From a virus (Duplodnaviria; Caudoviricetes), in the IMG/VR virus record IMGVR_UViG_3300034093_001431, positions 1 to 63,168 of that record: a DNA stretch of 63,168 nucleotides, one strand, 5' to 3'. Below, piece by piece: positions 1,518-50,308 of this stretch. The first letter of the stretch is position 1. Each line of letters starts with the position of its first letter. A program made the position numbers and the translations under genes. The notes beneath the pieces were generated by a model, which ran no database searches, was not told the DNA's origin, and worked only from the letters and a program-made list of their open reading frames with translations.

Positions 1518-3107
1518 ATGTCAAGGCAGATAACATTCGACACACCCGCGAGGGAAAAACTAAAGGCAGGGATCGACGCCCTAGCCGACGCGGTCAAGGT
1601 AACCCTAGGACCGAAGGGCAGGAACGTAGTAATCTACAAGAAGTACGGCGCCCCGCACGTGACAAAGGACGGCGTCACCGTGGCCAAGTCAATCCAGCTC
1701 TCGGACCCCATCGAGGACATGGGAGCGCAGATGCTCAAGGAGGTAGCGTCCAAGACAGCTGACATAGCAGGGGACGGGACCACCACCGCCACGGTCCTAG
1801 CGCAGGCAATGGTAACGGCAGGGTTAAAGAACGTGGCTAGCGGGGCCAACCCCATAGACCTCAAGCGAGGCATAGACAAGGCGGTAAGCGTCGTGGTGTC
1901 TGAGCTGGCTAAGATATCCGAGGGTGTAGGGTCGGACTACGAGAAGATCAAGCAGGTGGCGACAGTGTCCGCCAACAACGACGAGGCTATCGGCTCACTC
2001 ATAGCAGACGCCATGCAGAAGGTCGGCACCGAGGGAGTCATCACCGTGGAGGAAGCTAACGGCACGGAGACAGAGGTCAAGGTGGTGGAAGGCATGCAGA
2101 TCGATCGCGGCTACATCAGCCCGTACTTCATGACCGACGGATCTAACCAAGAGGCGGTACTCGACAACCCGCTCATCCTGATCTACAACAAGACCATCAG
2201 CAACATAAAGGAGCTACTGCCTACACTGGAGCAGTCAGCACAGACTGGCAGGCCCCTGCTTATTATAGCAGAAGACGTGGACGGCGAGGCGCTGGCGGCA
2301 CTGGTCGTGAACAAGATGAACGGCAGGTTGAAGGTTGCGGCAATCAAAGCACCTAGCTTCGGGGATACCAGAAAGGATGTGCTACACGACATCGCCATCC
2401 TGACAGGGGCTGAAGTTGTAGGCGAGGAGACGGGACTAAAGCTGGAGTCGGTAACCCTAATGGATCTAGGCGGGGCAGAGAAGATCATTGTAAGGAAAGA
2501 GAGCACCACCATCATCGGCGGATTGGGCGACAAGGACGAGATCGGTATCAGGACTGCAGAGATAAAGAACCAGATAGAGAAGGCATCAACAGACCGCGAG
2601 AAGAACTCGCTACAGTTCAGGCTCGCAAAACTTTCAGGCGGCGTGGCAGTGCTGTATGTAGGCGCGAGCACAGAGGTTGAGATGAAGGAGAAGAGGGACA
2701 GGGTCGACGACGCCCTTTCGGCTACCCGTGCGGCGGTAGAGGAGGGTATCGTTACCGGCGGGGGCGTGGCCTACATCAGGCTGGCACTAGCCCTAGACGG
2801 AGTGTTGGGGTCGAACGCGGACGAGTGCACGGGCATGGGCATCGTGCTCAGGGCTCTGGAAGAACCACTAAGACGCATCGTCTCTAACGCAGGAGGAGAA
2901 GGCGCCGTGGTGGTGCAGAGGGTGAGGGAGAGCTCCGGATCCTTCGGGTACAACGCCCGCACCGACAAGTACGAGGACCTTCACAAGGCCGGCGTCATAG
3001 ACCCCGCAAAGGTCACGAGGGTGGCGCTGGAGAACGCAGCATCCGTGGCAGGGATGATACTGATCACAGAGTGTGTGGTGTCAAACACGGCAGAAGACAA
3101 ACAATAA
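1518..3107 (+). CDS. groEL: Chaperonin GroEL (no C-terminal GGM tail)
   Basis: [42 protein letters not shown] motifs. Confidence 0.99.
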
Positions 3108-36120: not shown

Positions 36121-36870
36121 ATGATAGGATTAGGAACGATGGCGGCAATGTCTTTAGTGCCTGCGGTTTTTCAAGGGGCGATGGGGGCGATACAGTCCCG
36201 TCGCGGAAGGAAGATGGCGGAAGGGATAACCGTCCCTGAGTACCAAATTTCCGAGACTGCTGGTCAGGCTCTTGGTCTGGCCCGTCAGGGTGTCGGCACC
36301 TTCGAGATGCCCGGTCAGGACCAGATGGTTCAGGGCTTAGAGGCTGGGGTTGCCGGGTCTTTGAATGCGGCTACTCAGGCTGCAACATCTTCATCAGACC
36401 TCCTGTCCACTATTGCAAACGTGACAGGGAACAAGATGGAGGGCATGCTTAACATAGGCGCAAACGCCGCTCAGCAGTATGAGCAGAGACGTAACGCTTA
36501 CCAGAACGCGCTCAATGTGTACGCCGGATATCAAGAGAAGCAGATGATGGACCGGATAGCTAGACAGCAGCAGGCGGCAGATGCCTCTGCAGGTTTAATG
36601 AACGTAGGAAGACAGAACATAGGAGAGGCTATCAAGACAGGCGCAGGTGTAGGCGCTAACTACCTAATGTTAAAAGCTATGGGTTACGGCGGGGCAAATA
36701 CAAACAGTTCGAATAACACAAAGACTACAACGGAAAACGCACCTATGATGTCGGATGTTAACGTAGCGAGTTCAGGGTACACAGCTAGCGGCGGATCAGG
36801 CATGGGCTCTAACATGAGACAACAGCTTTTATTAAAACAGTTACAGGACATGCTAGGATTAAAAAACTGA
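36121..36870 (+). CDS. Internal virion/ejection protein
   Basis: Gly/Ala/Gln-rich with N-terminal hydrophobic segment. Confidence 0.6.
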   Translation: MIGLGTMAAMSLVPAVFQGAMGAIQSRRGRKMAEGITVPEYQISETAGQALGLARQGVGTFEMPGQDQMVQGLEAGVAGSLNAATQAATSSSDLLSTIANVTGNKMEGMLNIGANAAQQYEQRRNAYQNALNVYAGYQEKQMMDRIARQQQAADASAGLMNVGRQNIGEAIKTGAGVGANYLMLKAMGYGGANTNSSNNTKTTTENAPMMSDVNVASSGYTASGGSGMGSNMRQQLLLKQLQDMLGLKN

Positions 36871-36881
36871 TAAACAAAGAT

Positions 36882-38270
36882 ATGGCAGACAATGTAAGCA
36901 AGATGATAGAAAAGCCTTGGCTCGCCCAAGGTAGAACTGTTTTTTACGGGCAGAGTTCTTTTGACCCTGTTCAGTTCATGCAGAACCTAGCGGCGATGAA
37001 GATGCAGCAGGACGAGGCGGATGCTAAGAAAGCTATTGCCCGTCAAGCAGAGTGGAAGGATTTTAAATGGGACCAGTACCAGCCCAAGGAGATATACCAG
37101 CAGAATCGCCAGCAGATTGAGGGCAAGGTTTCTGAGTTCGGTAACCTTATGACGGAGGCGTTCGCTGCTGGATTAAGTCCAAGCGATCCTCGTGTGAAGA
37201 AGGTGGCGGAGCAGTTGAGGATGGAGATGATAGAGTTGGAGAACGAGGGTAAGCTGTTTAATGACAGGTATAATTCTGTAATGACAGAGGTTCAGAAGGA
37301 CCCGACCAAGTACGACCCTGAAACTATTAAAGCATGGCAGGCAGAGATTGAAAAGCTACCCACCATTCAGGAGAAGAGAGCTTACGTGGACACGAATAAT
37401 CCACTAGAAGAAGTGTTTGATATAAAACAGGAACTCTTAAAAGTGGGAGATTTTCCTACAATACTAGAAACAGAAAGGCAGTCTAATCCAAACTTTTTTG
37501 TAACAGAGGAAGGGCTGGACGAGGCGAAGACTAGAGGCATGGTCAAGGAATTACTTCTTACCCCTAAATACACCAAGCAGTTAGCTCAGGAAGCTAAGGC
37601 TCTTGCTGAAAAAGAAAATATAAAAATAGAAGAAGCCACCGAAAGGGTGATCAAGGGTTACGAAGATTTTATTCTTTCAACAGGAAGCAGAAAGAGAATA
37701 GAAAGCGGAACCCCAAAACAAAGCAACGTGTTTAATTTTGGTGGGCAGGGAGATAAAACAGGAAATGTTGTAGCGAAACCATACGAGACACAGGAGGCTT
37801 CAGGACTAGGGGAAAACCAAACGCTAGCCTCAGGAGAGAATGCTATCAGAATATTGACAGCGAAAGGAGAGGAGACGGTTCAGCCTAAGATCTTTACCAA
37901 AAATGGAAAGAGAGAAGAGTATGTCCCAATAGACTTGATAGTTGTAGAGCAGGATGGTAAAAGATTCTTTAACATCAGGGCACAAAAAGCTACCAAGAAA
38001 ACTGGTATAAAAATAAAAGAGAATGAAACCGAACAAAGTTTCTTGTCTGATTTAAAAAAGGAATACGGGGCTGAAGCGAAAATAGAAAAAGACGATGACG
38101 ACACTTACACTGTCACGTACCTTGCTCCACAAACAGAATTGCTTGAATATAATCCGGAGAATAAAGCCTCGTTACCGGGAGCTTTTATTGACTACGCGGA
38201 CAAGTGGCTTGCGAATAAAACTGTTGACGCAACAGGAGAAGGAGATTCAATTTTTAAAAAAACAAAATAA
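36882..38270 (+). CDS. Internal virion/ejection protein
   Basis: Helical, in cargo cluster. Confidence 0.55.
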   Translation: MADNVSKMIEKPWLAQGRTVFYGQSSFDPVQFMQNLAAMKMQQDEADAKKAIARQAEWKDFKWDQYQPKEIYQQNRQQIEGKVSEFGNLMTEAFAAGLSPSDPRVKKVAEQLRMEMIELENEGKLFNDRYNSVMTEVQKDPTKYDPETIKAWQAEIEKLPTIQEKRAYVDTNNPLEEVFDIKQELLKVGDFPTILETERQSNPNFFVTEEGLDEAKTRGMVKELLLTPKYTKQLAQEAKALAEKENIKIEEATERVIKGYEDFILSTGSRKRIESGTPKQSNVFNFGGQGDKTGNVVAKPYETQEASGLGENQTLASGENAIRILTAKGEETVQPKIFTKNGKREEYVPIDLIVVEQDGKRFFNIRAQKATKKTGIKIKENETEQSFLSDLKKEYGAEAKIEKDDDDTYTVTYLAPQTELLEYNPENKASLPGAFIDYADKWLANKTVDATGEGDSIFKKTK

Positions 38271-38278
38271 TGTAGTCT

Positions 38279-41200
38279 ATGGATAAAGTAGAGCAGTTAT
38301 ATAACTTATACTTAGAAAAAAAACTAATTACTAACGCTACTTCTTTGGAGAAGTTTCGTAGTGCGGGTGCAGATCAGCAGGACGCCTTGTTTAATCTAGG
38401 TAAAAAGAATAATCTATTTAAAGAAACTACTTTTGATACGTTTAAAAGTGCGTGGACTCCTAGTGATGTAAAAAAAAAAGACGAGCCGGAACAAGAATCT
38501 ACGCCGCAACAAGAAGCGCCATCCAAGCCTTCTGCAAAGCCTTCTCCGCCGAGTGGAAAAGAGGCTAAGATAAAAGAGCTCACGGTCAAGGCGGCTGAGT
38601 TGGCGGCTAGCGGTGATCAGCAGGGTCTTGCTAAGATAAGACAGGAGATAGTTGCTCTAAAAAAAGAAGCGGCACCAACCCCTGTTTATGAAAAGTCTGG
38701 GGTGGAAAAACCTAAGACAGACTGGCGTGCCGAGGGTCTTAAGATGATGGGTCGAGAGATCGAAGGTCTTGAGCAAAAGTCCGATGTTACAAGTGTTGAT
38801 GTAAACAAGCCTATTGAGATTAAAAAACAAGAGGCTCAGGCATACAATACTGAACAGAAAAAGAAGACAGAAGAGGAGAAGAAGGTGCGCGAAGAAATGT
38901 CTGCTGCTATTAACGAGACGTACAAGAGGCAGGCTGAGTACCTAGGAATAAAACAAGAGGAAGGGAAGGAGAAACTTTCGACGTATGAGATGAGGCAGAT
39001 GTATGAGCAGTCGATAGACCAAGCTCAGAAATACCTCGACGTTGTCCCAGAGTCTAGAGCATCCTTACCTATCAACGACGTCTTGGCTACAAGAAAAAAG
39101 ATCAACATGATGCCTAGCGACACTGACGAAGAAGTCCGTGCGCAGCTTCGTGCGTTGGCAGAGAATGACAAAGACTTGGAGAGGGCTTATCAGGAGATGG
39201 AGAACAGAGCTCTAGAGTACTGGAAGGTTTATGATCCGGGCAAGTACGAGACTTACACTGACCGCATGGCTACTATCAAGGATAAGGTTGGTGATATCCC
39301 TATGTATGACTTTAACTGGGAGGAGGACAGCTCTAAGCCTAGGCTCTCTTCTGAAGACAAGAAATTCCTAGAGCAGTTTAGAATAGAATCGTTACAGCTA
39401 CAACAGAGCGCAGATAACTACAGAGCAAAGAAGCTGACCGAGAATTACGACTTCAAGTCTTACAGCAAGGACGCCTCGTCTATTCAAGAAAGTCTCAGCA
39501 GTGTAATGAAGCAGATCAAGGAGACTGAATCTCAGTACAAGCTAGAGGAAAACAAGATCATGTCTCAGCATGACAAGTACAATGCTCAGGTGAGAGTTCT
39601 TAACGACAAGGTGTCGATCATGGAAAAGACTCTGGGTTCTTACCTAGATGCTAACGGGAATATAAAAGATGAGGGTAAGCTAGATGAATACAACGAGACT
39701 TACCGTAAGTACCAAGACCTTATAAACGAGGCGAACAGCCTACAAGAAAACAGGCCGTCCATATACAACGATCAGGGTTATATTGTAGCCCCTGCCACAT
39801 CACCAAAGGTGAAGCAGCTGTATGATCAGTACAACACGTTGATGGAACAGTACAACAAGGCGGGTGAGAAGTACGGTATAACGCCTGAGGTTACAGGTGA
39901 ACTGAACAGCGCTGTGTCTAACTTAGAAAACTCAAAGGCTTCACTAGCATACGCAGAAAAATATCAAGAGTTAAGTAACGATCGCGCGGTCGCTAAGTAC
40001 TTTCAGGAAGAGAAGCTGAGGGTGATGAAGGAAGGCAACGCATTCGAGAAAGGCTGGTTGGTAGCTAGAGATATAGCAACAGGTGTTGGCAATACGGTGC
40101 TTCCTATACTTGAAGCGCCAAAGGCTATTAGTGATATGGCTGGTTTCGAACAAGAGTACGGGTGGGCAGATGGCTTGGCGGACTGGACTCAAGGGTTTCT
40201 ATCTAAAGTGAACGAGAAGACTTCTTACGGGGATCTAGAGGTGCCTAGCTGGATGACTACCGTGCAAGACTTGAGTCAGGGCGTAGGGTCCTCACTTGGT
40301 TTTGCTATAGGTGGTGGCGTGGCAGGTGTGGCAGGAAGAGCTGTAGGTGTAACTGCCAAGTCCATAGACGCATTCCAGAAGAGTGCTGTGTTCACTCAGG
40401 TTTTCTTGGGTGGTCTTAACGACAACTATCAAGCGGCAAAGCTGGCAGGATTGTCCGACGCAGAGGCAGCCGCTGCTGCTACATTACAGTCTGGTGGTCA
40501 GGCGATAGGTGAGTTGGCGGTACCTGACTATAAAATATTTAAGGCGGCTAACCGCCCGAACTTATTCAGTGCTGTTAAAAGCCTAGGGCTTACACAGGGT
40601 GTTAAGAATTGGGCGCCGACCTACACGAAGAACCTTGCAGAGAATTTTATTAAGGAGGGGATAGAGGAAGGCACCTCTGAAATCATAACCAAGGGTAGCG
40701 CCAAGGCTATCAACACGTTAACTGACATGAAGGTGTACGAGGACGACATCAAGTCATCCGATCTAAGAGACGTCTTCACCAGTGGCGGTGCTGTGGGTAT
40801 GATCATGGAAGGGTTCAGACTTGGTCATAAGTACAAGCACCCTGTCACTAACAGCGCCACGAGATGGTACGCGGAGATGAGTGAGGCTGACAGGGAGGAG
40901 ATGAAGATGGGTATGAGCATTGAAGATGTTAACGCACTCAACAAGGCCGAGAAGGATAGTGACGCGTTCAAGATTGCTGAGGACATGAAGATGATCCCCC
41001 AGTACGCGATGATGAACGAGGTCGAGAAAGACGAACTGTTCGCTTTATTGTTAGAGAAGAAGACTGTGGCTGAGAGGTACCGAGGTATTGGACTTGGTGG
41101 CACAGAGATGGAGAAGCAGGAGATAGAGTCGTTGGATGCAGCGATCAAGGAAAAGTTCATGGCCGTTGACCAGAGGAGAGAGACCGAGTTACAGTCTGAG

Positions 41201-43366
41201 ATGGCTCGCCAGCGTGAGGATATCCAAGAGTTCGGTGTGTCCTTAAGAGTTCCTGAGGTAAAGACCGCAGAGGAGGTCATGTCTAAGGGTGAGTTCTTGG
41301 ACGACAACGTGGCGGCTAACGCTGACAAGGGTCTGTCGAAGATGATAGACGAGGTTATAGAAAGAGAGGACCTGACTGATGATGAGAAAGTTCAGCTTGC
41401 TCAGGTACTCGAAGATAGAAGACAAAAAATAAATAGCTATGAATATAGATCAAAGAATGAGGTTGTCACTTCTACCCAAACCCGCCCAAGTGGAGTTGTT
41501 GAAAAGGCTAGAGCAGCGAATGAGCGAGCAGCAAAACCAATCGCCGCAGCCGCAGCAAAAGAAAACCCAGTCCCTGTAGCCCTAGACGGGGTGAAGGGGA
41601 AGGTTAAGGTGAGTGACTCTACTATGGTTGACAACATGGGCGACACGATCCCGGAGGGGTACTACGTGTTCGTGCCTGATTCAACCGAAGGAAAGGGCGC
41701 CCGCATGGGGGCTGTTGTTATCGGGTCAATAGAGGACATCGACTCCGCCTCAACATTCGAGGGTGTGGAGAACAACCCGGCATGGAGCCCAGAGAATAAC
41801 ATGGTGGCGAACTTCACCACCCCTGATGGTCAGACGTTGAGTATCCTTGACGACGACCTCAGCGCGGATGTTGGTGTTAAGCAGAAGGAGGATGTTATCG
41901 GTGCAGCACCACAGGCACTTTTCGATGTAGTGTTCGAGGAGGTGACCACGGAGTTAGGCATTAAAGAGAAACCATATTTAAAGGATGATACGAAAGACAA
42001 AGAAGGGCTACCAAGTAGTCAGCGAACAGGGCAAGCCCCTGTCCAAGCCGGACCTGTCCAAGGAACAGGCACAGAAGAGGTTGCGCCAAGTGGAGTGGTT
42101 CAAGAACAAGAAGTAGACTTTGACGGTGCACCAGAGCTAACGCCTGAGGAGGCAGAGCTGATGTCAGCAGGCTACGACAACGCGATGTCTCAGGTCTTAG
42201 AGTTGGACGACACGCTAAGCCCGGAGGATACAGACCTTGCTGCATCATTTGTTCAGCAGGGAGCTACCCCTCAAGAGGCGGTGCAGATGGTACGTGACGA
42301 GAAGGACTCTATCTCTGCAGCGTCAGAGCCTGTCGTGCAAGAGGATCAGGAGTTCCTAACTCCCTTGCCTGATACGGACCCTGTCGGGAGAGCATTCTCC
42401 TTGTCCCTACCATTCGAGTACACAAGGTCTAGGGCTATGGAATTAAAGGAGAGGGCAGCAAACGATCCTACCCTAAAGCGTGCACTGAGAAACCTAGACA
42501 AGGCAGCCGAGTCGTTTGCTAAAACCTTCGGGTCTAAGCTACCAGTGTACGTGTTCGACACTCAGCAAGAGATGCTGGACGCCCTCGCCGAGGTCGGTGA
42601 GGTGAGTGACATGACCAACGGATCAATCCTTATGGATGATGACGGGACAATCTTGGGCGTGTTCATGAACGCTGAGTCTCAAGACTTCACGGTCGGGTCG
42701 CACGAGTTTGTTCACGGGATAATGGCGGAGTTCTTCAACGACAACCCTGAGATGTTTAACAAGTGGAAGGATTCAATCCTGAAGAACTTCAAAGGGTCAG
42801 GCATCGACAGGTTAAACGAGTGGGCTGAAAGCGAATACGACAGGGATAGTTCAGCCGAGGAGTTTATCACACAGCTCACTGCCGAACTAGCCGATGCAAA
42901 CAAGCAGCTGGCGTTGCCTAAATCTTTTCTTAATTCTATCAAGGACTTATTCAACAGTATATGGGAAGGCGTCACAGGAAGCCCGCTCTTCTCTGAGAGG
43001 GCTACGGAGAAGGACGTGATCACGTTTATCAACGACATGGCTAAGGGCCTGTCTACCGGGCAGGCTATGTCCACTAAAGCAGCAGAGAAACTGGCGGGTA
43101 GAGAGAAGAAGGCGGCTGCTAAAAAGAAGGCCAAGAATAGTAAGTCTGTCGTGCAGGCTCGTGCGTCTGTAAACATTGGCCAGATAAACCAGATCAATGC
43201 AGCTGACGGCCTGTCCAAGAACCCAGAGAACAAGGAGCTGGCTGACCAGATAAAGCAGGAAATTTTTGACAGCAACCCTACCCTTGAGTTCATCATGAAC
43301 AACTTCAATAAAATAGAGAAGGCTCTTGTGAACGAAGGGAAATTAAAAGTAAATTGCGAACTTTAA
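38279..43366 (+). CDS. Large polyvalent cargo protein with zincin metallopeptidase domain
   Basis: Gly-rich TM-like segment; HEFVH...EEF; C-terminal NP..NCEL motif. Confidence 0.75.
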   Translation: MDKVEQLYNLYLEKKLITNATSLEKFRSAGADQQDALFNLGKKNNLFKETTFDTFKSAWTPSDVKKKDEPEQESTPQQEAPSKPSAKPSPPSGKEAKIKELTVKAAELAASGDQQGLAKIRQEIVALKKEAAPTPVYEKSGVEKPKTDWRAEGLKMMGREIEGLEQKSDVTSVDVNKPIEIKKQEAQAYNTEQKKKTEEEKKVREEMSAAINETYKRQAEYLGIKQEEGKEKLSTYEMRQMYEQSIDQAQKYLDVVPESRASLPINDVLATRKKINMMPSDTDEEVRAQLRALAENDKDLERAYQEMENRALEYWKVYDPGKYETYTDRMATIKDKVGDIPMYDFNWEEDSSKPRLSSEDKKFLEQFRIESLQLQQSADNYRAKKLTENYDFKSYSKDASSIQESLSSVMKQIKETESQYKLEENKIMSQHDKYNAQVRVLNDKVSIMEKTLGSYLDANGNIKDEGKLDEYNETYRKYQDLINEANSLQENRPSIYNDQGYIVAPATSPKVKQLYDQYNTLMEQYNKAGEKYGITPEVTGELNSAVSNLENSKASLAYAEKYQELSNDRAVAKYFQEEKLRVMKEGNAFEKGWLVARDIATGVGNTVLPILEAPKAISDMAGFEQEYGWADGLADWTQGFLSKVNEKTSYGDLEVPSWMTTVQDLSQGVGSSLGFAIGGGVAGVAGRAVGVTAKSIDAFQKSAVFTQVFLGGLNDNYQAAKLAGLSDAEAAAAATLQSGGQAIGELAVPDYKIFKAANRPNLFSAVKSLGLTQGVKNWAPTYTKNLAENFIKEGIEEGTSEIITKGSAKAINTLTDMKVYEDDIKSSDLRDVFTSGGAVGMIMEGFRLGHKYKHPVTNSATRWYAEMSEADREEMKMGMSIEDVNALNKAEKDSDAFKIAEDMKMIPQYAMMNEVEKDELFALLLEKKTVAERYRGIGLGGTEMEKQEIESLDAAIKEKFMAVDQRRETELQSEMARQREDIQEFGVSLRVPEVKTAEEVMSKGEFLDDNVAANADKGLSKMIDEVIEREDLTDDEKVQLAQVLEDRRQKINSYEYRSKNEVVTSTQTRPSGVVEKARAANERAAKPIAAAAAKENPVPVALDGVKGKVKVSDSTMVDNMGDTIPEGYYVFVPDSTEGKGARMGAVVIGSIEDIDSASTFEGVENNPAWSPENNMVANFTTPDGQTLSILDDDLSADVGVKQKEDVIGAAPQALFDVVFEEVTTELGIKEKPYLKDDTKDKEGLPSSQRTGQAPVQAGPVQGTGTEEVAPSGVVQEQEVDFDGAPELTPEEAELMSAGYDNAMSQVLELDDTLSPEDTDLAASFVQQGATPQEAVQMVRDEKDSISAASEPVVQEDQEFLTPLPDTDPVGRAFSLSLPFEYTRSRAMELKERAANDPTLKRALRNLDKAAESFAKTFGSKLPVYVFDTQQEMLDALAEVGEVSDMTNGSILMDDDGTILGVFMNAESQDFTVGSHEFVHGIMAEFFNDNPEMFNKWKDSILKNFKGSGIDRLNEWAESEYDRDSSAEEFITQLTAELADANKQLALPKSFLNSIKDLFNSIWEGVTGSPLFSERATEKDVITFINDMAKGLSTGQAMSTKAAEKLAGREKKAAAKKKAKNSKSVVQARASVNIGQINQINAADGLSKNPENKELADQIKQEIFDSNPTLEFIMNNFNKIEKALVNEGKLKVNCEL
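41439..41579 (+). CDS. Candidate overprinted +1-frame gene (46 aa)
   Basis: AAAAAATAAATAGCT-ATG; MNIDQRMRLSLLPKPAQVELLKRLEQ... Confidence 0.35.
   Translation: MNIDQRMRLSLLPKPAQVELLKRLEQRMSEQQNQSPQPQQKKTQSL
41985..42116 (+). CDS. Overprinted +1-frame small basic protein (43 aa)
   Basis: MIRKTKKGYQVVSEQGKPLSKPDLSKEQAQKRLRQVEWFKNKK*, resembles a stand-alone small phage protein family. Confidence 0.65.
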   Translation: MIRKTKKGYQVVSEQGKPLSKPDLSKEQAQKRLRQVEWFKNKK

Positions 43367-43375
43367 ACACAGCAC

Positions 43376-46024
43376 ATGGCGAAGAGATGTAAGTACATAT
43401 ACAAGGGCAAGACCTACACAAAGGAAGAGTTCATGGCGATGCTAGCGGGAGGGGAGTATGAGAACCTCCTCGCTGAGTATGAACAAGACGTTCAAGACTT
43501 GAACGCACCTAGTAAAGGCATGAATATTAAGTCATCGATTATTCAAAACAATCCTGTATATTTTAATAATTTAAAAGAATTTGCAAGCAACTCTTCGTTT
43601 GCAAACAAAATTGAATTTAAAAAAGCTATTCAAGGATTGCTTAACTCATATCTACCTGAATTAAAAAAACAATACGGCAAGTCATTTGACCCGTCAAAAA
43701 ATGATGAACTAACCAAAAAATATTTGTCTGATGCTATAACAAACGAAGCTGTAAAAGCAATCGAAGAACACCCCGAAGCAATCGGATGGTATGATGAGAA
43801 GACACGAGCAGCATTAGACGTTATATCAGCAATACATCCTGAGATAGCAACTGATAAAGAATCAAGAGGTTCTTTTATTCTGCCGCTTGCTGTGATGTCA
43901 AATGGAAACTTAGTTGATTTCAACTTTGATTTAGCTGAAAAGCAATACAATTATTTTAAAAACAACGGAAGGTTTAATCCTGAAGGGGGGTTTGGATTAC
44001 AACAATCGGGAATTAAAAAGTCATTACTATTAATAAACTCTTTATTGGATAACGGGCTGTCAATGGCTGATATCAATACGTTTTTAACCTCAAAATATAG
44101 AGCCGGAGATTTAAAAGTAAAGGTAGACGGAAAAATTAAAAGTCTTGCCTCAGGTGAATTAGCTGATGAAATGGTGTACGGAGCTACTATACTTGGCCCT
44201 AAAATTGGAAATGGATTCTATATGAATCTATGGGGCCAGTTTGACCAACTTACAATGGACAGATGGTTTATGCGTACGTGGGGAAGACTTACAGGGACTC
44301 TTTTAAAAACTGACGCCAAAGCAATTGCTGATGGAAAGAAAAGAGTGTCTGACGCATTAGCTGCTATCAAGTCAAACCCTGCTGCCAGTGAAATATTGAA
44401 GTCAATATTTAAAAAGGTTAGTGGTATGTCTCCTGTTGAACTTGCTAAAGCTGTAGAAAAGGCAAGTGTAGACAAAGATAGCAGAACAAAACTTGCATCC
44501 AATCCCAAGACAGATGAGTTAAGAAAGGCGGGAAATCAATTGTCAAAAAACATATCGGGAGAAAAAGAAGCTCCTGCAAATGGCAATGAAAGAAAGTTCA
44601 TTCGAGAAGTATTTAATAACGTACAAAATAGATTAAAGACTGAGCACGATATTGAAATTTCAATGGCTGATTTACAAGCTGTGCTTTGGTATCCTGAAAA
44701 AATATTATACGAATCATTTAAAGGCGGTCAAACATTCGAAGAAGCATCTGAAGGATACACTTCAGAATCTGCTCCTGATTATTTTAATGCGGCAAAAAAA
44801 CTTGCAACTAAACTTGGAAAAAATGAAACAGAAATTAATGAAGCCTTATCAAGAGGAAGAGAACGTGCTCAACGAAGTATCGGAACAGGAAATACCACAG
44901 CTAGGGGATCAGCTAGCGCAGCTGATAAAGAAGCTCTAGGAAGGGTAACTGAGGTAATATCAGGAAAATTTAAACAATCTAAGGGTATAGGAAAATTTGA
45001 TCCGCTTCCGGGCGCCCCAAAAACTGAAGGCATCACGGGCCCGGATCCCAACTTGGTTAGCGTAGCGGAAAACTATGCTAAGAAGTTTGGAATACCTTTT
45101 ACTCGACAGGCGGAGTATGTTAAGGTTGATGAGGATAGGGCTAAGAGAATAGCTGACGCTTACGAGAACATGAAGCACGACCCCAAAAACCCAAAGGTCT
45201 TGGAAGCGTTCAATGACTTAATCCGTCAGACAAAGGATCAGTACGATGCTCTAACCGAGGCCGGGTATGAGTTCTCTTTCTTTGACGGCGACACAGATCC
45301 TTACAATAAGAACCCTTCCAAGGCCATGAGAGATCTTCGAAACAATAAGAAGATGGCGGTGTACGGAACATACGCAGGGTACGGAACAGAAGGTATAACC
45401 GGTGCTAGCATTGAAGGCAACCCTATGCTTCAGGACACCGGCCTTAAATGGAAAGATCAGAATGGTGTGGACCAGACGGTGACAATGAACGACTTGTTCC
45501 GCGCTGTTCATGACGCGTTTGGCCACGGGTTAGAGGGCGCAGGGTTCAGGGCTAGAGGTGAAGAGAACGCGTGGCAGGCACACGTTAGGTTATTCACAGG
45601 TCCTGCTGTCGCTGCTATAACCACCGAGACTAGAGGTCAGAACAGCTGGTTAAATTACGGACCCTTTGGTGAACAGAACAGGAAGGCAACGGTGGACGAT
45701 ACCGTGTTTGCTGAGCAGAAGACAGGGCTTATGCCGGAGTGGACATGGAACGAGGGTAAGGCTGAGGCTATGCCTGAGCAGGTAGATGATCAGGACACTC
45801 AAGCTGTTGCAGACTCAAGCGCTCTGTTTGAAAAGTCTCAGGAGTTATTCGAGAAGATATCCGATGCAGCAGGCGGGTCTAAGAAGAGATCACTCGCTGA
45901 GGAGAGGAGAAAATTCATGGACGAGAACCCTGATATCAAGTTCATGGACGAGAATATGGCGTATATTTACAGACAAATTGAGGACAATAACCTTGGAAAG
46001 AAAGAAGGCAACTGTCCGCTATAA
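43376..46024 (+). CDS. Polyvalent cargo protein: HhH-glycosylase-like domain plus HDxxGH domain
   Basis: GWY, GPKIG..F..NL.G, LTMDRWF, LQAVLW; FRAVHDAFGH..GEE. Confidence 0.65.
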   Translation: MAKRCKYIYKGKTYTKEEFMAMLAGGEYENLLAEYEQDVQDLNAPSKGMNIKSSIIQNNPVYFNNLKEFASNSSFANKIEFKKAIQGLLNSYLPELKKQYGKSFDPSKNDELTKKYLSDAITNEAVKAIEEHPEAIGWYDEKTRAALDVISAIHPEIATDKESRGSFILPLAVMSNGNLVDFNFDLAEKQYNYFKNNGRFNPEGGFGLQQSGIKKSLLLINSLLDNGLSMADINTFLTSKYRAGDLKVKVDGKIKSLASGELADEMVYGATILGPKIGNGFYMNLWGQFDQLTMDRWFMRTWGRLTGTLLKTDAKAIADGKKRVSDALAAIKSNPAASEILKSIFKKVSGMSPVELAKAVEKASVDKDSRTKLASNPKTDELRKAGNQLSKNISGEKEAPANGNERKFIREVFNNVQNRLKTEHDIEISMADLQAVLWYPEKILYESFKGGQTFEEASEGYTSESAPDYFNAAKKLATKLGKNETEINEALSRGRERAQRSIGTGNTTARGSASAADKEALGRVTEVISGKFKQSKGIGKFDPLPGAPKTEGITGPDPNLVSVAENYAKKFGIPFTRQAEYVKVDEDRAKRIADAYENMKHDPKNPKVLEAFNDLIRQTKDQYDALTEAGYEFSFFDGDTDPYNKNPSKAMRDLRNNKKMAVYGTYAGYGTEGITGASIEGNPMLQDTGLKWKDQNGVDQTVTMNDLFRAVHDAFGHGLEGAGFRARGEENAWQAHVRLFTGPAVAAITTETRGQNSWLNYGPFGEQNRKATVDDTVFAEQKTGLMPEWTWNEGKAEAMPEQVDDQDTQAVADSSALFEKSQELFEKISDAAGGSKKRSLAEERRKFMDENPDIKFMDENMAYIYRQIEDNNLGKKEGNCPL
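44823..44939 (+). CDS. Candidate overprinted +1-frame gene (38 aa)
   Basis: GGAAAAA-ATG in interdomain linker; MKQKLMKPYQEEENVLNE... Confidence 0.3.
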   Translation: MKQKLMKPYQEEENVLNEVSEQEIPQLGDQLAQLIKKL

Positions 46025-46033
46025 GACGATAAC

Positions 46034-46537
46034 ATGATAACAGTAGTACCTACAAAATTAAGTGTCGAGGTTTCATCCTTATTAGAAGCTAGAATCCATG
46101 ACGAGTACAACGCCTTCTTCTTCTATCGATCAGCATCTAACTGGTGCCAAGACGTAGGGTACGAGAAGGCTGCAAAGTTCTTTGCCAAGGAGGCAGAGTC
46201 GGAACTTGGTCACGCTAAAAAGATTGAGTCTTACATGGTGGACTGGAACACGCTGCCTTCACTAGCAGCGACGACCACCCCTCCATTCTTCTCTGGACTT
46301 GACGACATTATATCGCAAGCCTATAAAATGGAGTACGCACTGTACGAAGAGTATGAAGATACAAGCGCAAAGATATTTGAGATGAAGGACCTCTGCGTGT
46401 TTGACTTCTTACAAGAGTACCGCGTAGGCCAGAAGGACGCCGTGACCGAGTACGCTGACATGATCAATAAGCTGTCCGGTGTTAACACTATGGATAAGTT
46501 TCAGATGCTAATGCTAGAAAAGAATCTATTCGCATAA
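46034..46537 (+). CDS. Non-heme ferritin
   Basis: E..A...Y, FF.KEAESELGHA ferroxidase-type residues, E, Q..A..E. Confidence 0.85.
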   Translation: MITVVPTKLSVEVSSLLEARIHDEYNAFFFYRSASNWCQDVGYEKAAKFFAKEAESELGHAKKIESYMVDWNTLPSLAATTTPPFFSGLDDIISQAYKMEYALYEEYEDTSAKIFEMKDLCVFDFLQEYRVGQKDAVTEYADMINKLSGVNTMDKFQMLMLEKNLFA

Positions 46538-46543
46538 CAGCCC

Positions 46544-49500
46544 ATGCCGTGTAAGATAAAATACAAAGACAGGGATATGTCTTACGCAGAGTTCGCCTCA
46601 TCCATGTATGAAGGCGAGCTTGCTGCTTTAATAAACTCCGGCGTGATCGACTCCTCTAAGTTAAAGGGGAGCATGCCCGCGTCTATAACAGCGGCAATGT
46701 CTGCTGAGCCAGCACCGAAAGCTACCCCTGCCAAGTCGCCCCTGCCTCCTTTGAAATTAAAGGACCGGAAGGGTAAGCCGGTAAGGAAGGCGAGTGTAAA
46801 GGCGAAGATGAGCAACAACGCAGGCGCTGTCAACAGCGCGTTCTCTAACGTGTTCAAGCAGTTCCCTAACTTAACCATCAAGGTTGATGCTCAGTCATAT
46901 TTAAACGCATCGGCAGACCCCGCGTCTGTCCCTATATACGACTCGTATGATGACCTGATAGGGTTTACAAATGCGGGCGAGGTCTTTATAGACCCTTCGG
47001 TATTTGACCGTAGCTCAAGGATTGCAGCGCTATCATCTGTATGGTTAAAGGTAGCCGAGACCGTAGACCCTGCAATATACAAGTCCTTCATGAGCGAGCT
47101 TAAGAAGCCAGAGAACAGGTCTTACATAGACAGTGTAGAAGCTACGGGTAGGTTTACTGAAGAGAAAGATATCCTAAACCAAGCCGCGTCAAACATGATC
47201 AATGACGCAGCGTACCAGAGGGAGAACAGGACCCTTATACAAAAGTTTGCAGACTTCCTCAGGGATTTGTTTGGGATCAAGAGGGACTTTATGAAGATGA
47301 CTGCGAAGGATTTTGCGGAGACTATCGCAAAGGAACTTAACGGGAACTACCCGGTGTCTAGCCTGACATCAAAGCAGTTAGATGAGCTAGATCCTAGTGA
47401 TGCTAGGATATCTATAGATGGTGGTGTCCTTGATTACGAGGGTGGGGTTATGGCTAAGGCTGCCGATAAGGTGAGTGGGGTACGATTAATATCGCCTCAA
47501 AAGTTTAGCAGCTTCAAGACTATGCTTAGCTATATGTTCGGGGGTAAGTACTTCGGGAGGATAGACAACCTTAACAAGCAGAAGGATAGAGTTATAAACG
47601 CACGCATGCGCGAGCTTGATGGTAAGGTAAAGTCTTTCGCTAAACAATTTAAGAAAGAGTTTAAGGGCAAGTCTAATGCAGACATCAAGCGTGCTATTGA
47701 GTACATAAACGGCATCATGAGCTCCACGCAAAAGCGCAGCTGGGTTATGATGAATGCTAGGAATGGTGTACTGTCAGATGAGATGGTCGACATGATCCAG
47801 AGTATGCGAGATGACATAGACGCGATGTCTATGGAGGTGAACAAGTTCATCGACCCGCAGTCTAGACTGAGTGCTGTTATCAGTGGTAACCTAGGGTTCT
47901 ACATGAACCGAAGCTACGCCGTACATAACAACGGGTCTTGGAACAAGGCCATGTTCCCGTCTGGCATGAAGACCAGCGTATTCTCAGACAAGAGAACCCC
48001 GGAGATGCAGGCTGTGTACGACGAGGCGTTTGACTTCTTGAAGAACCAGTACCCTGAGTTATCATCGTCTGAGATTGACTTGATGTTAAAGCAGTTCTCA
48101 AAGGTCGACAAGGACGAGGCAGAGGATGCGTTTATAGAATCAAACGGTAAGGTAGGCAAGGCTTACTCAGACTTCTTGAAAGCTAGGAAGGATATGCCTG
48201 ACCAGATCCGCGCATTCCTTGGCGAGTACAAGGATCCGCTGACTAATTTCTACAACACTATGGCGAACATGATACAGTTCGCTGAGAATAGAAAGTTCTT
48301 GCAAAGTTTGGCTGACTTAGGGGACAACAAGATATTCTTTGACTCTCCTAGTAGCGAGTTCAATAGCGAGATAGCAGGGACCAAGAACGAGTACAGCCCA
48401 CTGTATGGTAAGTACACCTCGAAGGAGATTGCTGACTACCTGAGCGGGACAGACAAGATGTGGAAGATCCCTGTCTTCAGGAAACTCGCATCGGTCTGGA
48501 AGATGAACCAGACGGTTTTATCTCCAAGGTCTTGGGTAAGAAACTTCCATTCTAACTTCTTTATACACGTGTACAACGGTCACATATTCGGGCCCGTCAA
48601 GTACATGGCTAAAGGATTTTATTACGCAGGGAAGAACGTGGCTGACTCAGATGACTCGTACATACTTAGCCTTATGGAGGCTGGAGTGATCGGGTCTGGA
48701 GTTGAAGCGGGCGTGCTTCGCAGGGTTATAAAGGAGGCTTGGGGTGACATGGACGACATGACCCTTGACCCTGAGCAGAGATACAACTCTTTCACTGAGA
48801 GGTTAAACAGGGCTGTCAGCTGGACAAGAAATAAGTCTATAGATGTTTACGAGGCTGCAGATAACATCCACAAAATCATAGCGTTCGAGTCTGAAAAGTA
48901 TGACGTCAAGTATATGTTCCCGTCATTGAGCGAAAAGGAAATATTTGACATGGCCGTGGAAAGGTTTAAGGAGACCAACATTGTGTATGAGAAGGCGCCA
49001 GATATAATTAAGAGATTGTCTGCGTCGCCTATACTGGGTACGTTCCCTACCTTTACCGCAGAGGCCATGAGGATTGCCGTGACTATACCGATGCGTGCAG
49101 TCAAGGATATAAACGAAGGCGCTAAGAAGAAGAATGCTCGTCAGACCTTGGTTGGTCTTAAGAGACTGGTTGGATTCGCAGCAGGCGCTACCATGATGAA
49201 CGTGATAGCTAACCTAATCCTTTCAGGATTTGATCAGCCAGAGGAGGATGATGACGTGGCAAGGGTGCTGTACGAAGGGTCTCCGGAGTACGCCAAGAAT
49301 AGTAGCAAGATCATCATTAACAAGACCCCTAAGGGTTATAAGATGGTTGACTTGGACTGGCTTAATCCATTGAACTTTATTCAGAAGTCCTACAACACAT
49401 GGGAAAACACGGGCTCTTTTGAGCCGAACGACTCGCGCCTGCTGGCCGTGACGTCTACGCTTTTAGAATCCTTCATTGGCCCTGAAGCAGTCCTAGCTGT

Positions 49501-50308
49501 CGGCGAGGATATAATAAAGAACGAAGACTCATCCAAGAGGTCAGAAATTTATTCAATAAACGACAGGTTCTACGACAAGTTTGAGAAGAGCTTCATCTAT
49601 ATGAGCAAGAGATCTCAGCCCGGAATCGCTACCAGTGCTTATGATTTTTACAAAGCGTATGGTGTGGACAAGGAGTATGACGGGGACGCATACAAGAGGG
49701 ATACCAAGGACGAGGTGTTGAGGCACACGGCTGGGGTGAACATTGTTAGCGTGGATATTGTCCGCAACTGGGCTAATCAGGTAGCTAACAACTACGCACC
49801 CGCTATCAGTAGTTATACCGAGGACGTGAGCAAGATGAAGTACGACCTTAAGACCGAGGTGGAGAAGATGAACTACAACTTAAAGAGTGGTAACCTCACC
49901 AAGTCAGAGTACGACTCAAGGTTTGATGACATGTTGGACCAGTTCCAGAACGACATACACGAGGTGAACAAGGGTATAGTAGCCAAGCAGCTTAGACTTC
50001 ACAAGTACACCAAGTCCCTGCTTAATGTAGTGTCCCAATCTACCGACGACCCGGAACAGATTGCTAAGATTGAGGAGGAGATTCTAGGTAAGTACGAGTA
50101 CAGCATAGGCAAGAACGTGACCATGAACCAAGGGTACAAGGTGAAGGAAGCCTTGAAGTTAGGCAACCTGTACAACGCAGACTTCTTCTTCTTTAAGGAC
50201 ATGACAGGCGAGTTCCTTAATAACATGGGGTACAAGGGTTCTGACAAGGAGATGATGGACGCTTACCTAAAGGATTTGATAACAGAAGCTGACCAAAATT
50301 ATGAGTAA
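46544..50308 (+). CDS. Large polyvalent cargo protein (degenerate zincin plus LPD38-like C-terminus)
   Basis: GF...GEVFIDP followed by non-HExxH helix; helical C-terminal region. Confidence 0.65.
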   Translation: MPCKIKYKDRDMSYAEFASSMYEGELAALINSGVIDSSKLKGSMPASITAAMSAEPAPKATPAKSPLPPLKLKDRKGKPVRKASVKAKMSNNAGAVNSAFSNVFKQFPNLTIKVDAQSYLNASADPASVPIYDSYDDLIGFTNAGEVFIDPSVFDRSSRIAALSSVWLKVAETVDPAIYKSFMSELKKPENRSYIDSVEATGRFTEEKDILNQAASNMINDAAYQRENRTLIQKFADFLRDLFGIKRDFMKMTAKDFAETIAKELNGNYPVSSLTSKQLDELDPSDARISIDGGVLDYEGGVMAKAADKVSGVRLISPQKFSSFKTMLSYMFGGKYFGRIDNLNKQKDRVINARMRELDGKVKSFAKQFKKEFKGKSNADIKRAIEYINGIMSSTQKRSWVMMNARNGVLSDEMVDMIQSMRDDIDAMSMEVNKFIDPQSRLSAVISGNLGFYMNRSYAVHNNGSWNKAMFPSGMKTSVFSDKRTPEMQAVYDEAFDFLKNQYPELSSSEIDLMLKQFSKVDKDEAEDAFIESNGKVGKAYSDFLKARKDMPDQIRAFLGEYKDPLTNFYNTMANMIQFAENRKFLQSLADLGDNKIFFDSPSSEFNSEIAGTKNEYSPLYGKYTSKEIADYLSGTDKMWKIPVFRKLASVWKMNQTVLSPRSWVRNFHSNFFIHVYNGHIFGPVKYMAKGFYYAGKNVADSDDSYILSLMEAGVIGSGVEAGVLRRVIKEAWGDMDDMTLDPEQRYNSFTERLNRAVSWTRNKSIDVYEAADNIHKIIAFESEKYDVKYMFPSLSEKEIFDMAVERFKETNIVYEKAPDIIKRLSASPILGTFPTFTAEAMRIAVTIPMRAVKDINEGAKKKNARQTLVGLKRLVGFAAGATMMNVIANLILSGFDQPEEDDDVARVLYEGSPEYAKNSSKIIINKTPKGYKMVDLDWLNPLNFIQKSYNTWENTGSFEPNDSRLLAVTSTLLESFIGPEAVLAVGEDIIKNEDSSKRSEIYSINDRFYDKFEKSFIYMSKRSQPGIATSAYDFYKAYGVDKEYDGDAYKRDTKDEVLRHTAGVNIVSVDIVRNWANQVANNYAPAISSYTEDVSKMKYDLKTEVEKMNYNLKSGNLTKSEYDSRFDDMLDQFQNDIHEVNKGIVAKQLRLHKYTKSLLNVVSQSTDDPEQIAKIEEEILGKYEYSIGKNVTMNQGYKVKEALKLGNLYNADFFFFKDMTGEFLNNMGYKGSDKEMMDAYLKDLITEADQNYE

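Follow-up and report, generated by a model that had tools for sequence, protein, structure and literature searches.

Docking (communication) domains of nonribosomal peptide synthetases (NRPS) and polyketide synthases (PKS) comprise a short module at the C-terminus of the upstream subunit and another at the N-terminus of the downstream subunit, and their orthogonal classes set the order of the subunits. In T4-like phages, genes in pieces originate from endonuclease insertion (e.g., nrdA of phage Aeh1) and the pieces assemble via a pre-existing fold. The locus described here comprises three large open reading frames (ORFs), termed A, B and C (1695, 882 and 1254 amino acids (aa), respectively), encoded on the plus strand of the IMG/VR virus record IMGVR_UViG_3300034093_001431; the whole 63,168-bp sequence, a complete viral record with direct terminal repeats (a phage genome), is referred to as the window. 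By homology, A, B and C are pieces of a giant virion protein that relatives encode as one ORF with the same domain order, and the ends generated by the cuts carry short modules with a single cysteine (Cys) residue each. We hold with moderate confidence that these modules form orthogonal terminal docking pairs, probably disulfide-locked in the virion, which re-chain the split ejected protein. As in NRPS/PKS docking domains, short modules at the upstream C end and the downstream N end occur in classes; in contrast to them, the modules have no sequence relation to those domains (no Pfam match), belong to phage virion proteins and carry a lone Cys at the tip, and their binding is a prediction from sequence. 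The Aeh1 nrdA type is similar in that an inserted gene splits a phage gene whose pieces must still cooperate, and differs in that here dedicated end modules, absent from the unsplit relatives, cap the cut.

Polyvalent proteins (Iyer et al., 2017; PMC5512222) are giant multi-domain proteins that phages and conjugative elements encode and that are presumed to accompany the DNA. The locus resembles them in the size and multi-domain build of its proteins and in that relatives of B carry Kinase-PolyVal and ART-PolyVal domains, whereas the window protein is cut into separately translated pieces with Cys-bearing end modules; the words “split”, “disulfide”, “cysteine”, “linker” and “homing” are absent from the main text of that paper. 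A second point of comparison is provided by the fractured genes, in which the two halves of a split intein are encoded on either side of a free-standing gene for a homing endonuclease (Dassa et al., 2009; PMC2677866). The likeness extends to a gene in pieces, complementary modules at the cut and an endonuclease sometimes inside it (loci L058, L061, L062, and L063). The modules described here, in contrast, have no Hint fold or intein blocks, the positions of their Cys misfit the chemistry of splicing, a non-covalent or disulfide link is predicted in place of a peptide bond, and the guest in the window is a ferritin-like gene and not an endonuclease. Finally, among the cargo and ejection proteins of podoviruses, the virion of the Bacteroides phage crAss001 contains inter-subunit disulfides and stores large cargo proteins that are extruded partly unfolded through the tail, and the authors proposed that the exit order depends on the packing and mutual interactions of the cargo proteins (PMC10172136). 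Terminal Cys connectors are not described in the accessible text of that study and, unlike crAss001, the window phage is nearer to phages with Cellulophaga-phage-like structural proteins. Searches of the open-access literature and bioRxiv (ejection proteins with disulfides; docking domains, split genes, homing endonucleases) returned no paper describing such connectors in its title or in the opening of its abstract. What is proposed here is the docking-mediated assembly of a split multi-domain protein in a phage virion, tipped with a probable redox lock.

Relatives of B were found in 44 IMG/VR loci by a peptide-pattern scan with B. Among the 38 distinct sequences examined for the comparison of giant ORFs, the domains of B (residues 56-536 and 556-800) form part of single ORFs, 1573-4261 aa in length and mostly 2400-3950 aa. 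In about 40 relatives, one polyvalent-type ORF of 2400-4261 aa unites the domains and has neither terminal motif. The 3717-aa single ORF of one relative (L001) begins like A, residues 1-90 and 1448-1598 of which match it, and in the fused giants of four others (L008, L011, L026, and L029) the C-terminal part, downstream of the B-like domain, aligns with the core of C; A, B and C together total 3831 aa vs 3717 aa for the L001 ORF. Giants and window also have their upstream synteny in common, namely a protein of ~1200 aa, a small Gly-rich protein and a 430-600-aa protein, followed by the giant. Since the domains of B and C and the start of A sit in single ORFs of relatives, A, B and C are a split giant of polyvalent type. 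Matches of B in the phage collection include the annotation “large polyvalent protein”, and above-cut-off matches to PF18762 (Kinase-PolyVal) and PF18760 (ART-PolyVal) occur in B-type relatives, as do GNAT and DUF7178 domains; by the homology of the two B domains, the window proteins belong to the polyvalent class in size and multi-domain architecture. In the fused L001 ORF (47-11200), similar linker strings ([KR]VK.QVA... and QQAGKTGF) recur at about residues 1210-1230, 1420-1430, and 1910-1925, and strings similar to these inter-module strings lie beside the end modules in A and B. The recurring strings between the L001 modules may be linkers or protease sites.

The modules were recognized as two terminal motifs. 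The C ends of A and B align with a Smith-Waterman score of 54 vs 22.9 +/- 4.4 for shuffled sequences (0 of 5000 reaching 54), and the N ends of B and C with a score of 40 vs 19.5 +/- 4.0 (2 of 5000); BLASTP was weak on both pairs, reaching E 0.001 with the N ends and producing no alignment of the C ends. Chance similarity is rejected by the shuffle scores together with profile searches of large protein collections, the recurrence of the motifs in relatives being the stronger argument. The ends of the 1695- and 882-aa proteins and the starts of the 882- and 1254-aa proteins given in the initial annotation of this DNA are exact, letter for letter, and its allocation of the C motif only to A, both motifs to B and the N motif only to C holds, neither motif being found in any further ORF of the window. 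The consensus patterns that it proposed stand in part: across relatives the C motif keeps as invariant the Cys and one Asn, with NP common, and the N motif the Cys and a single Tyr, G-K-x-Y-[ST]-x-x-E-F being frequent, while the remaining columns do not hold. The motif Cys lies 0-3 residues before the stop at the C end and 2-5 residues after the initiator Met at the N end (7 in protein P0206), and synonymous differences within conserved motif codons between the window and locus L046 point to selection at the protein level.

Reference collections offered no relative of these modules. When isolated end peptides and mini-proteins were compared with Pfam and PHROGs, sub-threshold rows only were obtained and no docking-domain, Hint or intein family appeared; Pfam, which includes the families of Iyer et al. 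(2017), gave no match to the end modules. Among PDB sequences, the N-motif profile had no match and the C-motif profile produced chance-level rows only (E 0.08-0.97). Single end peptides, compared by phmmer with the first 44 loci, matched only themselves, and a pattern scan built from the two-sequence C alignment yielded 0 confirmed loci; scans with alignments of the motifs did recover additional split loci. A weak lead was Phage_XkdX, which scored 13.3 bits vs a cut-off of 23.5 for the N module of locus L063.

Motif hidden Markov models (HMMs) were run on all stop-to-stop ORFs of the window and of 56 of 57 loci (L045, a copy of the window region, was excluded). Their matches are confined to ORF ends for the C motif and ORF starts for the N motif, and the fused-giant loci L001-L044 contained no match. 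In a collection of 5.8 billion proteins, from which 8000 candidates of 89-2000 aa were scored with the C-motif profile (E<=0.01), the match stops at the last residue in 63 of 63 proteins, A and B included. The N-motif profile, run against 1.84 billion representatives of clusters at 50% identity, detected 240 clusters at E<=0.001, evidencing a large family with no Pfam, PHROG or PDB sequence entry above threshold; the motif begins at residues 1-8 in 147 of the 150 matches listed, the other three being multi-stretch repeat proteins without it. Fused versions, a search for which the initial annotation had suggested as a check, did not turn up: no protein with an internal C or N module and no fused C-N form was found by the HMM and profile searches, among the matches listed. 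The motifs are strictly terminal, and the modules belong, in the sequences compared, to split forms only.

Adjacent co-occurrence of the two motifs, also suggested as a check, was observed in most evaluable cases. Gene order was analyzed in 30 loci, comprising 22 loci with 30 N-motif genes (including the near-duplicate pairs L049/L050 and L072/L073) and 8 metagenome loci; one N-motif gene at a contig edge (L063) was left out as not evaluable. An ORF with a Cys in its last 4 residues lies directly upstream or one gene further in 24 of the 29 evaluable cases, in comparison with 28 Cys-ended ORFs among the 120 complete ORF ends of those loci overall, most of which are the partners themselves. All 8 further metagenome loci (11 were found, 3 of them earlier contigs) display the order C end, ferritin-like ORF, N start. 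B and C are not neighbors: a 167-aa ferritin-like ORF, overlooked in the initial annotation, intervenes between them in the window.

The motifs fall into subtypes. In subtype I, ends of the form ...G-K-L-K-V-N-C-E-L go with starts of the form C-K-Y-I-Y..K-T-Y-T-K-E-E-F, and in subtype II, ends in ...G-N-C-P(-L), Q-C-P-I or P-C-F go with starts of the form C-[KI]-[IV]-x-Y-K...F...L-H-D-G. Pairing follows these classes: ...G[KE]L[KI]V.C ends are found with CK[YH]IY starts in the window, L048-L050, L061, and L062, including the distant L061 and L062, in which a G-E-L-K-V-E-C end accompanies a C-K-Y-I-Y-K-G start, and ...GNCP, QCPI or PCF ends with C[KI][IV].Y...LHDG starts. The four loci of the window group with two junctions (window, L048, L049, and L050) all use one of each subtype, as an order-fixing, self-avoiding set of connectors would need.

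The notion of swappable cassettes was borne out by 13 B-type proteins of 664-1009 aa, middle pieces that keep both ends and exchange their interiors. Residues 1-37 are 69-100% identical among them and the last ~65-108 residues 30-95%, while the interiors are replaced, having nothing or parts in common with B, and carry Kinase-PolyVal, ART-PolyVal, GNAT or DUF7178 domains. Five mini-proteins (P0080, P0103, P0104, P0108, and P0109; 70-96 aa) contain little beyond an N and a C module with two Cys, and look like empty cassettes or spacers of the chain. Another small protein, P0065 (219 aa), is a sigma-70 factor of the extracytoplasmic function (ECF) type (regions 2 and 4) ending in a subtype II C module with its Cys, possibly a transcription factor that is attached to the chain and ejected with it.

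The most telling result of the analysis is the lone motif Cys in a Cys-free background. The four Cys of A, B and C (residue 1693; residues 5 and 880; residue 3) are all motif Cys, and none occurs elsewhere in 3831 residues. The other plus-strand ORFs of the window contain 102 Cys in 11,643 aa (0.88%), from which ~34 would be expected in 3831 aa, and the probability of finding no Cys in A, B and C beyond the motifs is 2e-15. This pattern extends to relatives: 42 of 43 C-motif proteins of at least 600 aa lack an inner Cys (1 inner Cys in 56,425 aa), as do 60 of 71 N-motif proteins of the same size (14 in 99,560 aa), and the fused giants contain 7 Cys in 107,022 aa vs 451 in 92,657 aa of their neighbors. 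Proteins threaded unfolded through narrow channels (e.g., autotransporter passengers) are also Cys-poor. Between fused and split forms, a Cys-avoiding protein class thus acquires exactly one Cys per cut end, and a cross-link at the extreme tips is the only position that keeps two chains thread-like. The Cys-free stretch also includes the 249- and 462-aa ORFs just before A, and Cys-freeness may mark the whole set of ejected proteins. In GC-richer lineages, large Cys-free proteins with a single tip Cys (...RECQA stop; MPTLATC... start; ...YSAC stop) were observed in L031 (357-4358 and 9584-14773), L033 (1768-5751 and 9626-14797), and L034 (6542-12196); these ends differ in sequence from the motifs and the genes are ~5 kb apart. 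The principle of the tip Cys may thus be wider than this motif family.

The observations above establish the split, the strictly terminal position of the motifs, the order of the genes, the uniqueness of the Cys and the exchange of cassettes; peptide binding, disulfide formation, joint ejection and release are what we infer. The ~50-aa C-end module of the upstream piece would consist, according to a mini-protein model, of a helix and a short strand ending in Cys, and the ~40-aa N-end module of the downstream piece of Met, 1-4 residues, Cys, a beta-hairpin and a helix. The C-end strand would join the N-end hairpin, bringing the two lone Cys together; outside the cell the paired Cys would oxidise to an inter-chain disulfide, giving a thread-like A-B-C chain that would be packaged and pushed through the tail as the unsplit protein would be, and that would separate in the reducing cytoplasm. 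Non-identical subtypes (I at A/B, II at B/C) would set the order and prevent B from joining itself, and the constant ends would allow effector cassettes to be exchanged and foreign genes (ferritin-like, GIY-YIG endonuclease) to sit in the cut without destroying the protein.

Structure prediction gives this arrangement weak support. The AlphaFold2 model of the natural 86-aa N+C mini-protein P0108 (6-row alignment; mean predicted local distance difference test (pLDDT) 68, predicted template modeling score (pTM) 0.45) begins with a hairpin (5-8/11-14), which is followed by one helix and then a long one (57-79), and closes with a strand at 82-85, its termini (pLDDT 74-81) being better predicted than the middle. 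The model appears to lay the C-end strand on the N-end hairpin, because DSSP assigns a strand only where it is paired and, apart from the final strand, the model has no sheet element but the hairpin. A Foldseek search of this model against the PDB gave nothing at E<=0.001. The prediction of a complex between the C end of A (59 aa) and the N end of B (50 aa) scored 0.20 and 0.18 (mark 0.32), was run without controls and counts neither way.

Several points weigh against docking and disulfide formation between the modules. Both binding and the disulfide are deduced from comparison, and since virions assemble in the reducing cytoplasm a disulfide would be possible only after lysis. The second mini-protein model, that of P0080 (70 aa), is poor (pLDDT 56, pTM 0.34) and has no terminal strand. 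Cys-poverty is a property of the whole class and is by itself no proof that the terminal Cys pair together, and the pairing of subtypes and matched divergence of partners could be explained by common descent and linkage, the motifs being ~0.1-0.6 kb apart. In addition, five N-motif genes (L058, L059, L060, L061, and L062), all of the CIYKYKGKDYTKDEFYSL subtype, have no Cys-ended partner one or two genes upstream; they follow a YkuD-domain protein ending in ...NKSEQ or ...KIKELN, with no terminal Cys, and in the visible regions of these loci N ends outnumber C ends. Another type of junction was noticed in this group (L058 1434-5001, L059 835-4297, and L061 1974-4995), in which an end in ...GLVIPKN is followed by a start in MYKNI[KN]VEAEHNELILEN. 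The protein with the MYKNI start combines a YkuD (L,D-transpeptidase) domain with the motif C-H-G-C (or C-H-x-C), and no Cys-ended partner lies close to the N-motif gene that follows it.

Some of these points would also fit an unlikely alternative, in which the modules bind a common third partner (portal, capsid interior, scaffold or packaging chaperone) or their Cys ligate a metal, and serve as packaging or ordering signs. A strictly terminal position and a lone Cys suit any terminus-dependent recognition; the five N-motif genes without a nearby Cys-ended partner, the single-Cys end and start of L031 and L033 lying ~5 kb apart and the presence of a ferritin-like gene in every subtype II junction are likewise in its favor. 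The fused giants, however, are packaged without either module, indicating that the modules are not general packaging signs, and the modules sit exactly at chain interruptions, in C-then-N order and in cognate subtype pairs. As for the metal version, a usual metal site would require more than a single Cys from each end.

The contents of the cuts bear on another alternative, rather improbable in our view, according to which the modules are baggage of a mobile or inserted gene-splitting cassette, or recombination linkers, with little or no joining role. In the more distant phage group (L058, L061, L062, and L063) a free-standing GIY-YIG endonuclease gene is present in junctions, with PF01541 above the cut-off in 5 of 5 ORFs; these genes (L058 7823-8479; L061 1222-1974; L062 1438-2031; L063 162-827 and 1240-1977) sit exactly between the Cys-ended and N-motif genes, or directly upstream of the N-motif gene at a contig edge. 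Every subtype II junction displayed holds a 163-167-aa ORF with like ends at the place of the ferritin-like gene of the window, the Pfam scan for the ferritin-like fold having been applied to the window copy only. Interiors swapped between constant ends and partner motifs that diverge in step would also be expected of such baggage. On the other hand, one of the two window junctions is empty: the A/B-type junction has no inserted gene in the window, L048-L050, and L051, where the gap is -1 to 12 nt. The near-invariant lone Cys and synonymous change in conserved codons indicate selection on the peptides themselves, and the N module is kept across its 240 clusters.

A combination of docking with insertion can also be envisaged, and is doubtful at present: the unit formed by C-end connector, stop, guest gene (endonuclease or other), start and N-end connector would be a mobile, intein-free gene-splitting cassette. 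It could land between the domains of the giant since the halves would re-join the protein after translation via a redox-reversible Cys-Cys lock.

Ligation of the pieces by peptide bond, through a very small new split intein or other device, is very improbable. Cys on both sides of the cut, an upstream end that is often Asn-Cys and endonuclease genes inside some cuts, as in the fractured genes (Dassa et al., 2009; PMC2677866), recall inteins. This reading was rejected on the geometry of the Cys and the absence of Hint. Pfam scans of A, B and C and of their isolated ends revealed no Hint or intein family (blocks A, B, F, G), and the PDB held no sequence relative. A split intein would call for Cys/Ser at position 1 of an N-fragment of at least 25 aa at the upstream end, and for a terminal Asn plus Cys/Ser/Thr (+1) after a C-fragment at the downstream start; given the distance of the Cys from stop and Met, the “intein” would be only 3-8 residues long, and the downstream Cys is preceded by R, P, G, A, S or N instead of a conserved Asn. 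The modules, moreover, are predicted to be largely helical. Equally improbable is a read-through of in-frame TAA stops producing one polyprotein in the window, where A, B, the ferritin-like ORF and C are in the same frame and each gap is one TAA plus 6-9 nt, and it was rejected since only 21 of 40 junctions across 19 loci are in frame (13 expected, a mild and non-conserved excess), several overlap (TAATG, ATGA) or end in TGA, and ferritin would land inside the chain; no protein with an internal N or C module was found among the matches listed.

Altogether, the interpretation offered by the initial annotation, a chain of separately encoded proteins joined by matched Cys-bearing ends, is partly supported. 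If terminal docking with a disulfide lock is true, it would explain how an ejectable chain of ~3800 aa is kept while single effector cassettes swap and guest genes reside inside, and it would provide a sequence rule for recognizing ejected proteins and their order in uncultured phages, namely Cys-free giants with a lone Cys at the cut ends. The modules would also represent compact (40-50 aa), apparently orthogonal and possibly redox-releasable heterodimerising tags for protein engineering, and a splicing-free counterpart to the solution that homing endonucleases have in inteins and introns. Were the mobile cassette real, it would offer selfish or guest genes a third way of residing inside an essential gene, next to introns and inteins, and would also drive the exchange of phage effector cassettes.

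The features of the locus are collected in Table 1. On the plus strand of the window, the genes for the terminase large subunit, portal and structural proteins lie downstream of a replication block and a GroEL-like gene; next come a 1240-aa “virion structural protein”, two Cys-free ORFs, A, B and C, and an endolysin-like gene. A, B and C belong to the structural module, where the portal, capsid and 1240-aa structural genes precede them, and there are PHROG “virion structural protein” matches, which agrees indirectly with packaging and delivery alongside the DNA; the core of C (373-1115) matches phrog_22602, of that annotation. PHROG matches of the structural proteins of the window phage are to Cellulophaga phages, and relatives have Bacteroidota-like signal peptides. 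No Pfam family was found in A, B or C of the window at E<=0.01, and neither megablast of 38279-50308 nor tblastn of A gave a match in the phage collection.

Table 1. Coordinates in the window of the split protein, its terminal motifs and adjacent features.
Feature	Position	Strand	Remarks
ORF, 249 aa, 0 Cys	36121-36870	+	Upstream of A
ORF, 462 aa, 0 Cys	36882-38270	+	Directly upstream of A
Piece A, 1695 aa	38279..43366	+	Ends ...KLKVNCEL; sole Cys, residue 1693
C-end motif, subtype I, last 50 aa of A (...NPTLEFIMNNFNKIEKALVNEGKLKVNCEL)	43214..43363	+	Cys codon 43355-43357
Gap A/B	43364-43375	+	TAA-separated, in frame
Piece B, 882 aa, swappable middle	43376..46024	+	Starts MAKRCKYIYKGKTYTKEEF..., ends ...KKEGNCPL; sole Cys, residues 5 and 880
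N-end motif, subtype I, of B (MAKRCKYIYKGKTYTKEEFMAMLAGGEY...)	43376..43495	+	Cys codon 43388-43390
C-end motif, subtype II, of B (...NPDIKFMDENMAYIYRQIEDNNLGKKEGNCPL)	45872..46021	+	Cys codon 46013-46015
Gap B/ferritin-like	46022-46033	+	TAA-separated, in frame
Ferritin-like gene, 167 aa, 2 Cys	46034..46537	+	PF00210, E 1.8e-19; between B and C
Gap ferritin-like/C	46535-46543	+	TAA-separated, in frame
Piece C, 1254 aa	46544..50308	+	Starts MPCKIKYKDRDMSYAEF...; sole Cys, residue 3
N-end motif, subtype II, of C (MPCKIKYKDRDMSYAEFASSMYEGELAALI...)	46544..46663	+	Cys codon 46550-46552

The ferritin-like ORF of the window belongs to PF00210 with 70.5 bits (cut-off 24.5) over residues 16-148, and may be a guest gene or have a role in iron handling or redox. 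An ORF of this kind occurs at the same relative place in L046-L053, L065-L074, and L076-L085, and in the unsplit L010 a similar one follows the giant. The GroEL-like chaperonin encoded by the phage is located at 1518-3107 of the window (phrog_5725, E 8.6e-171).

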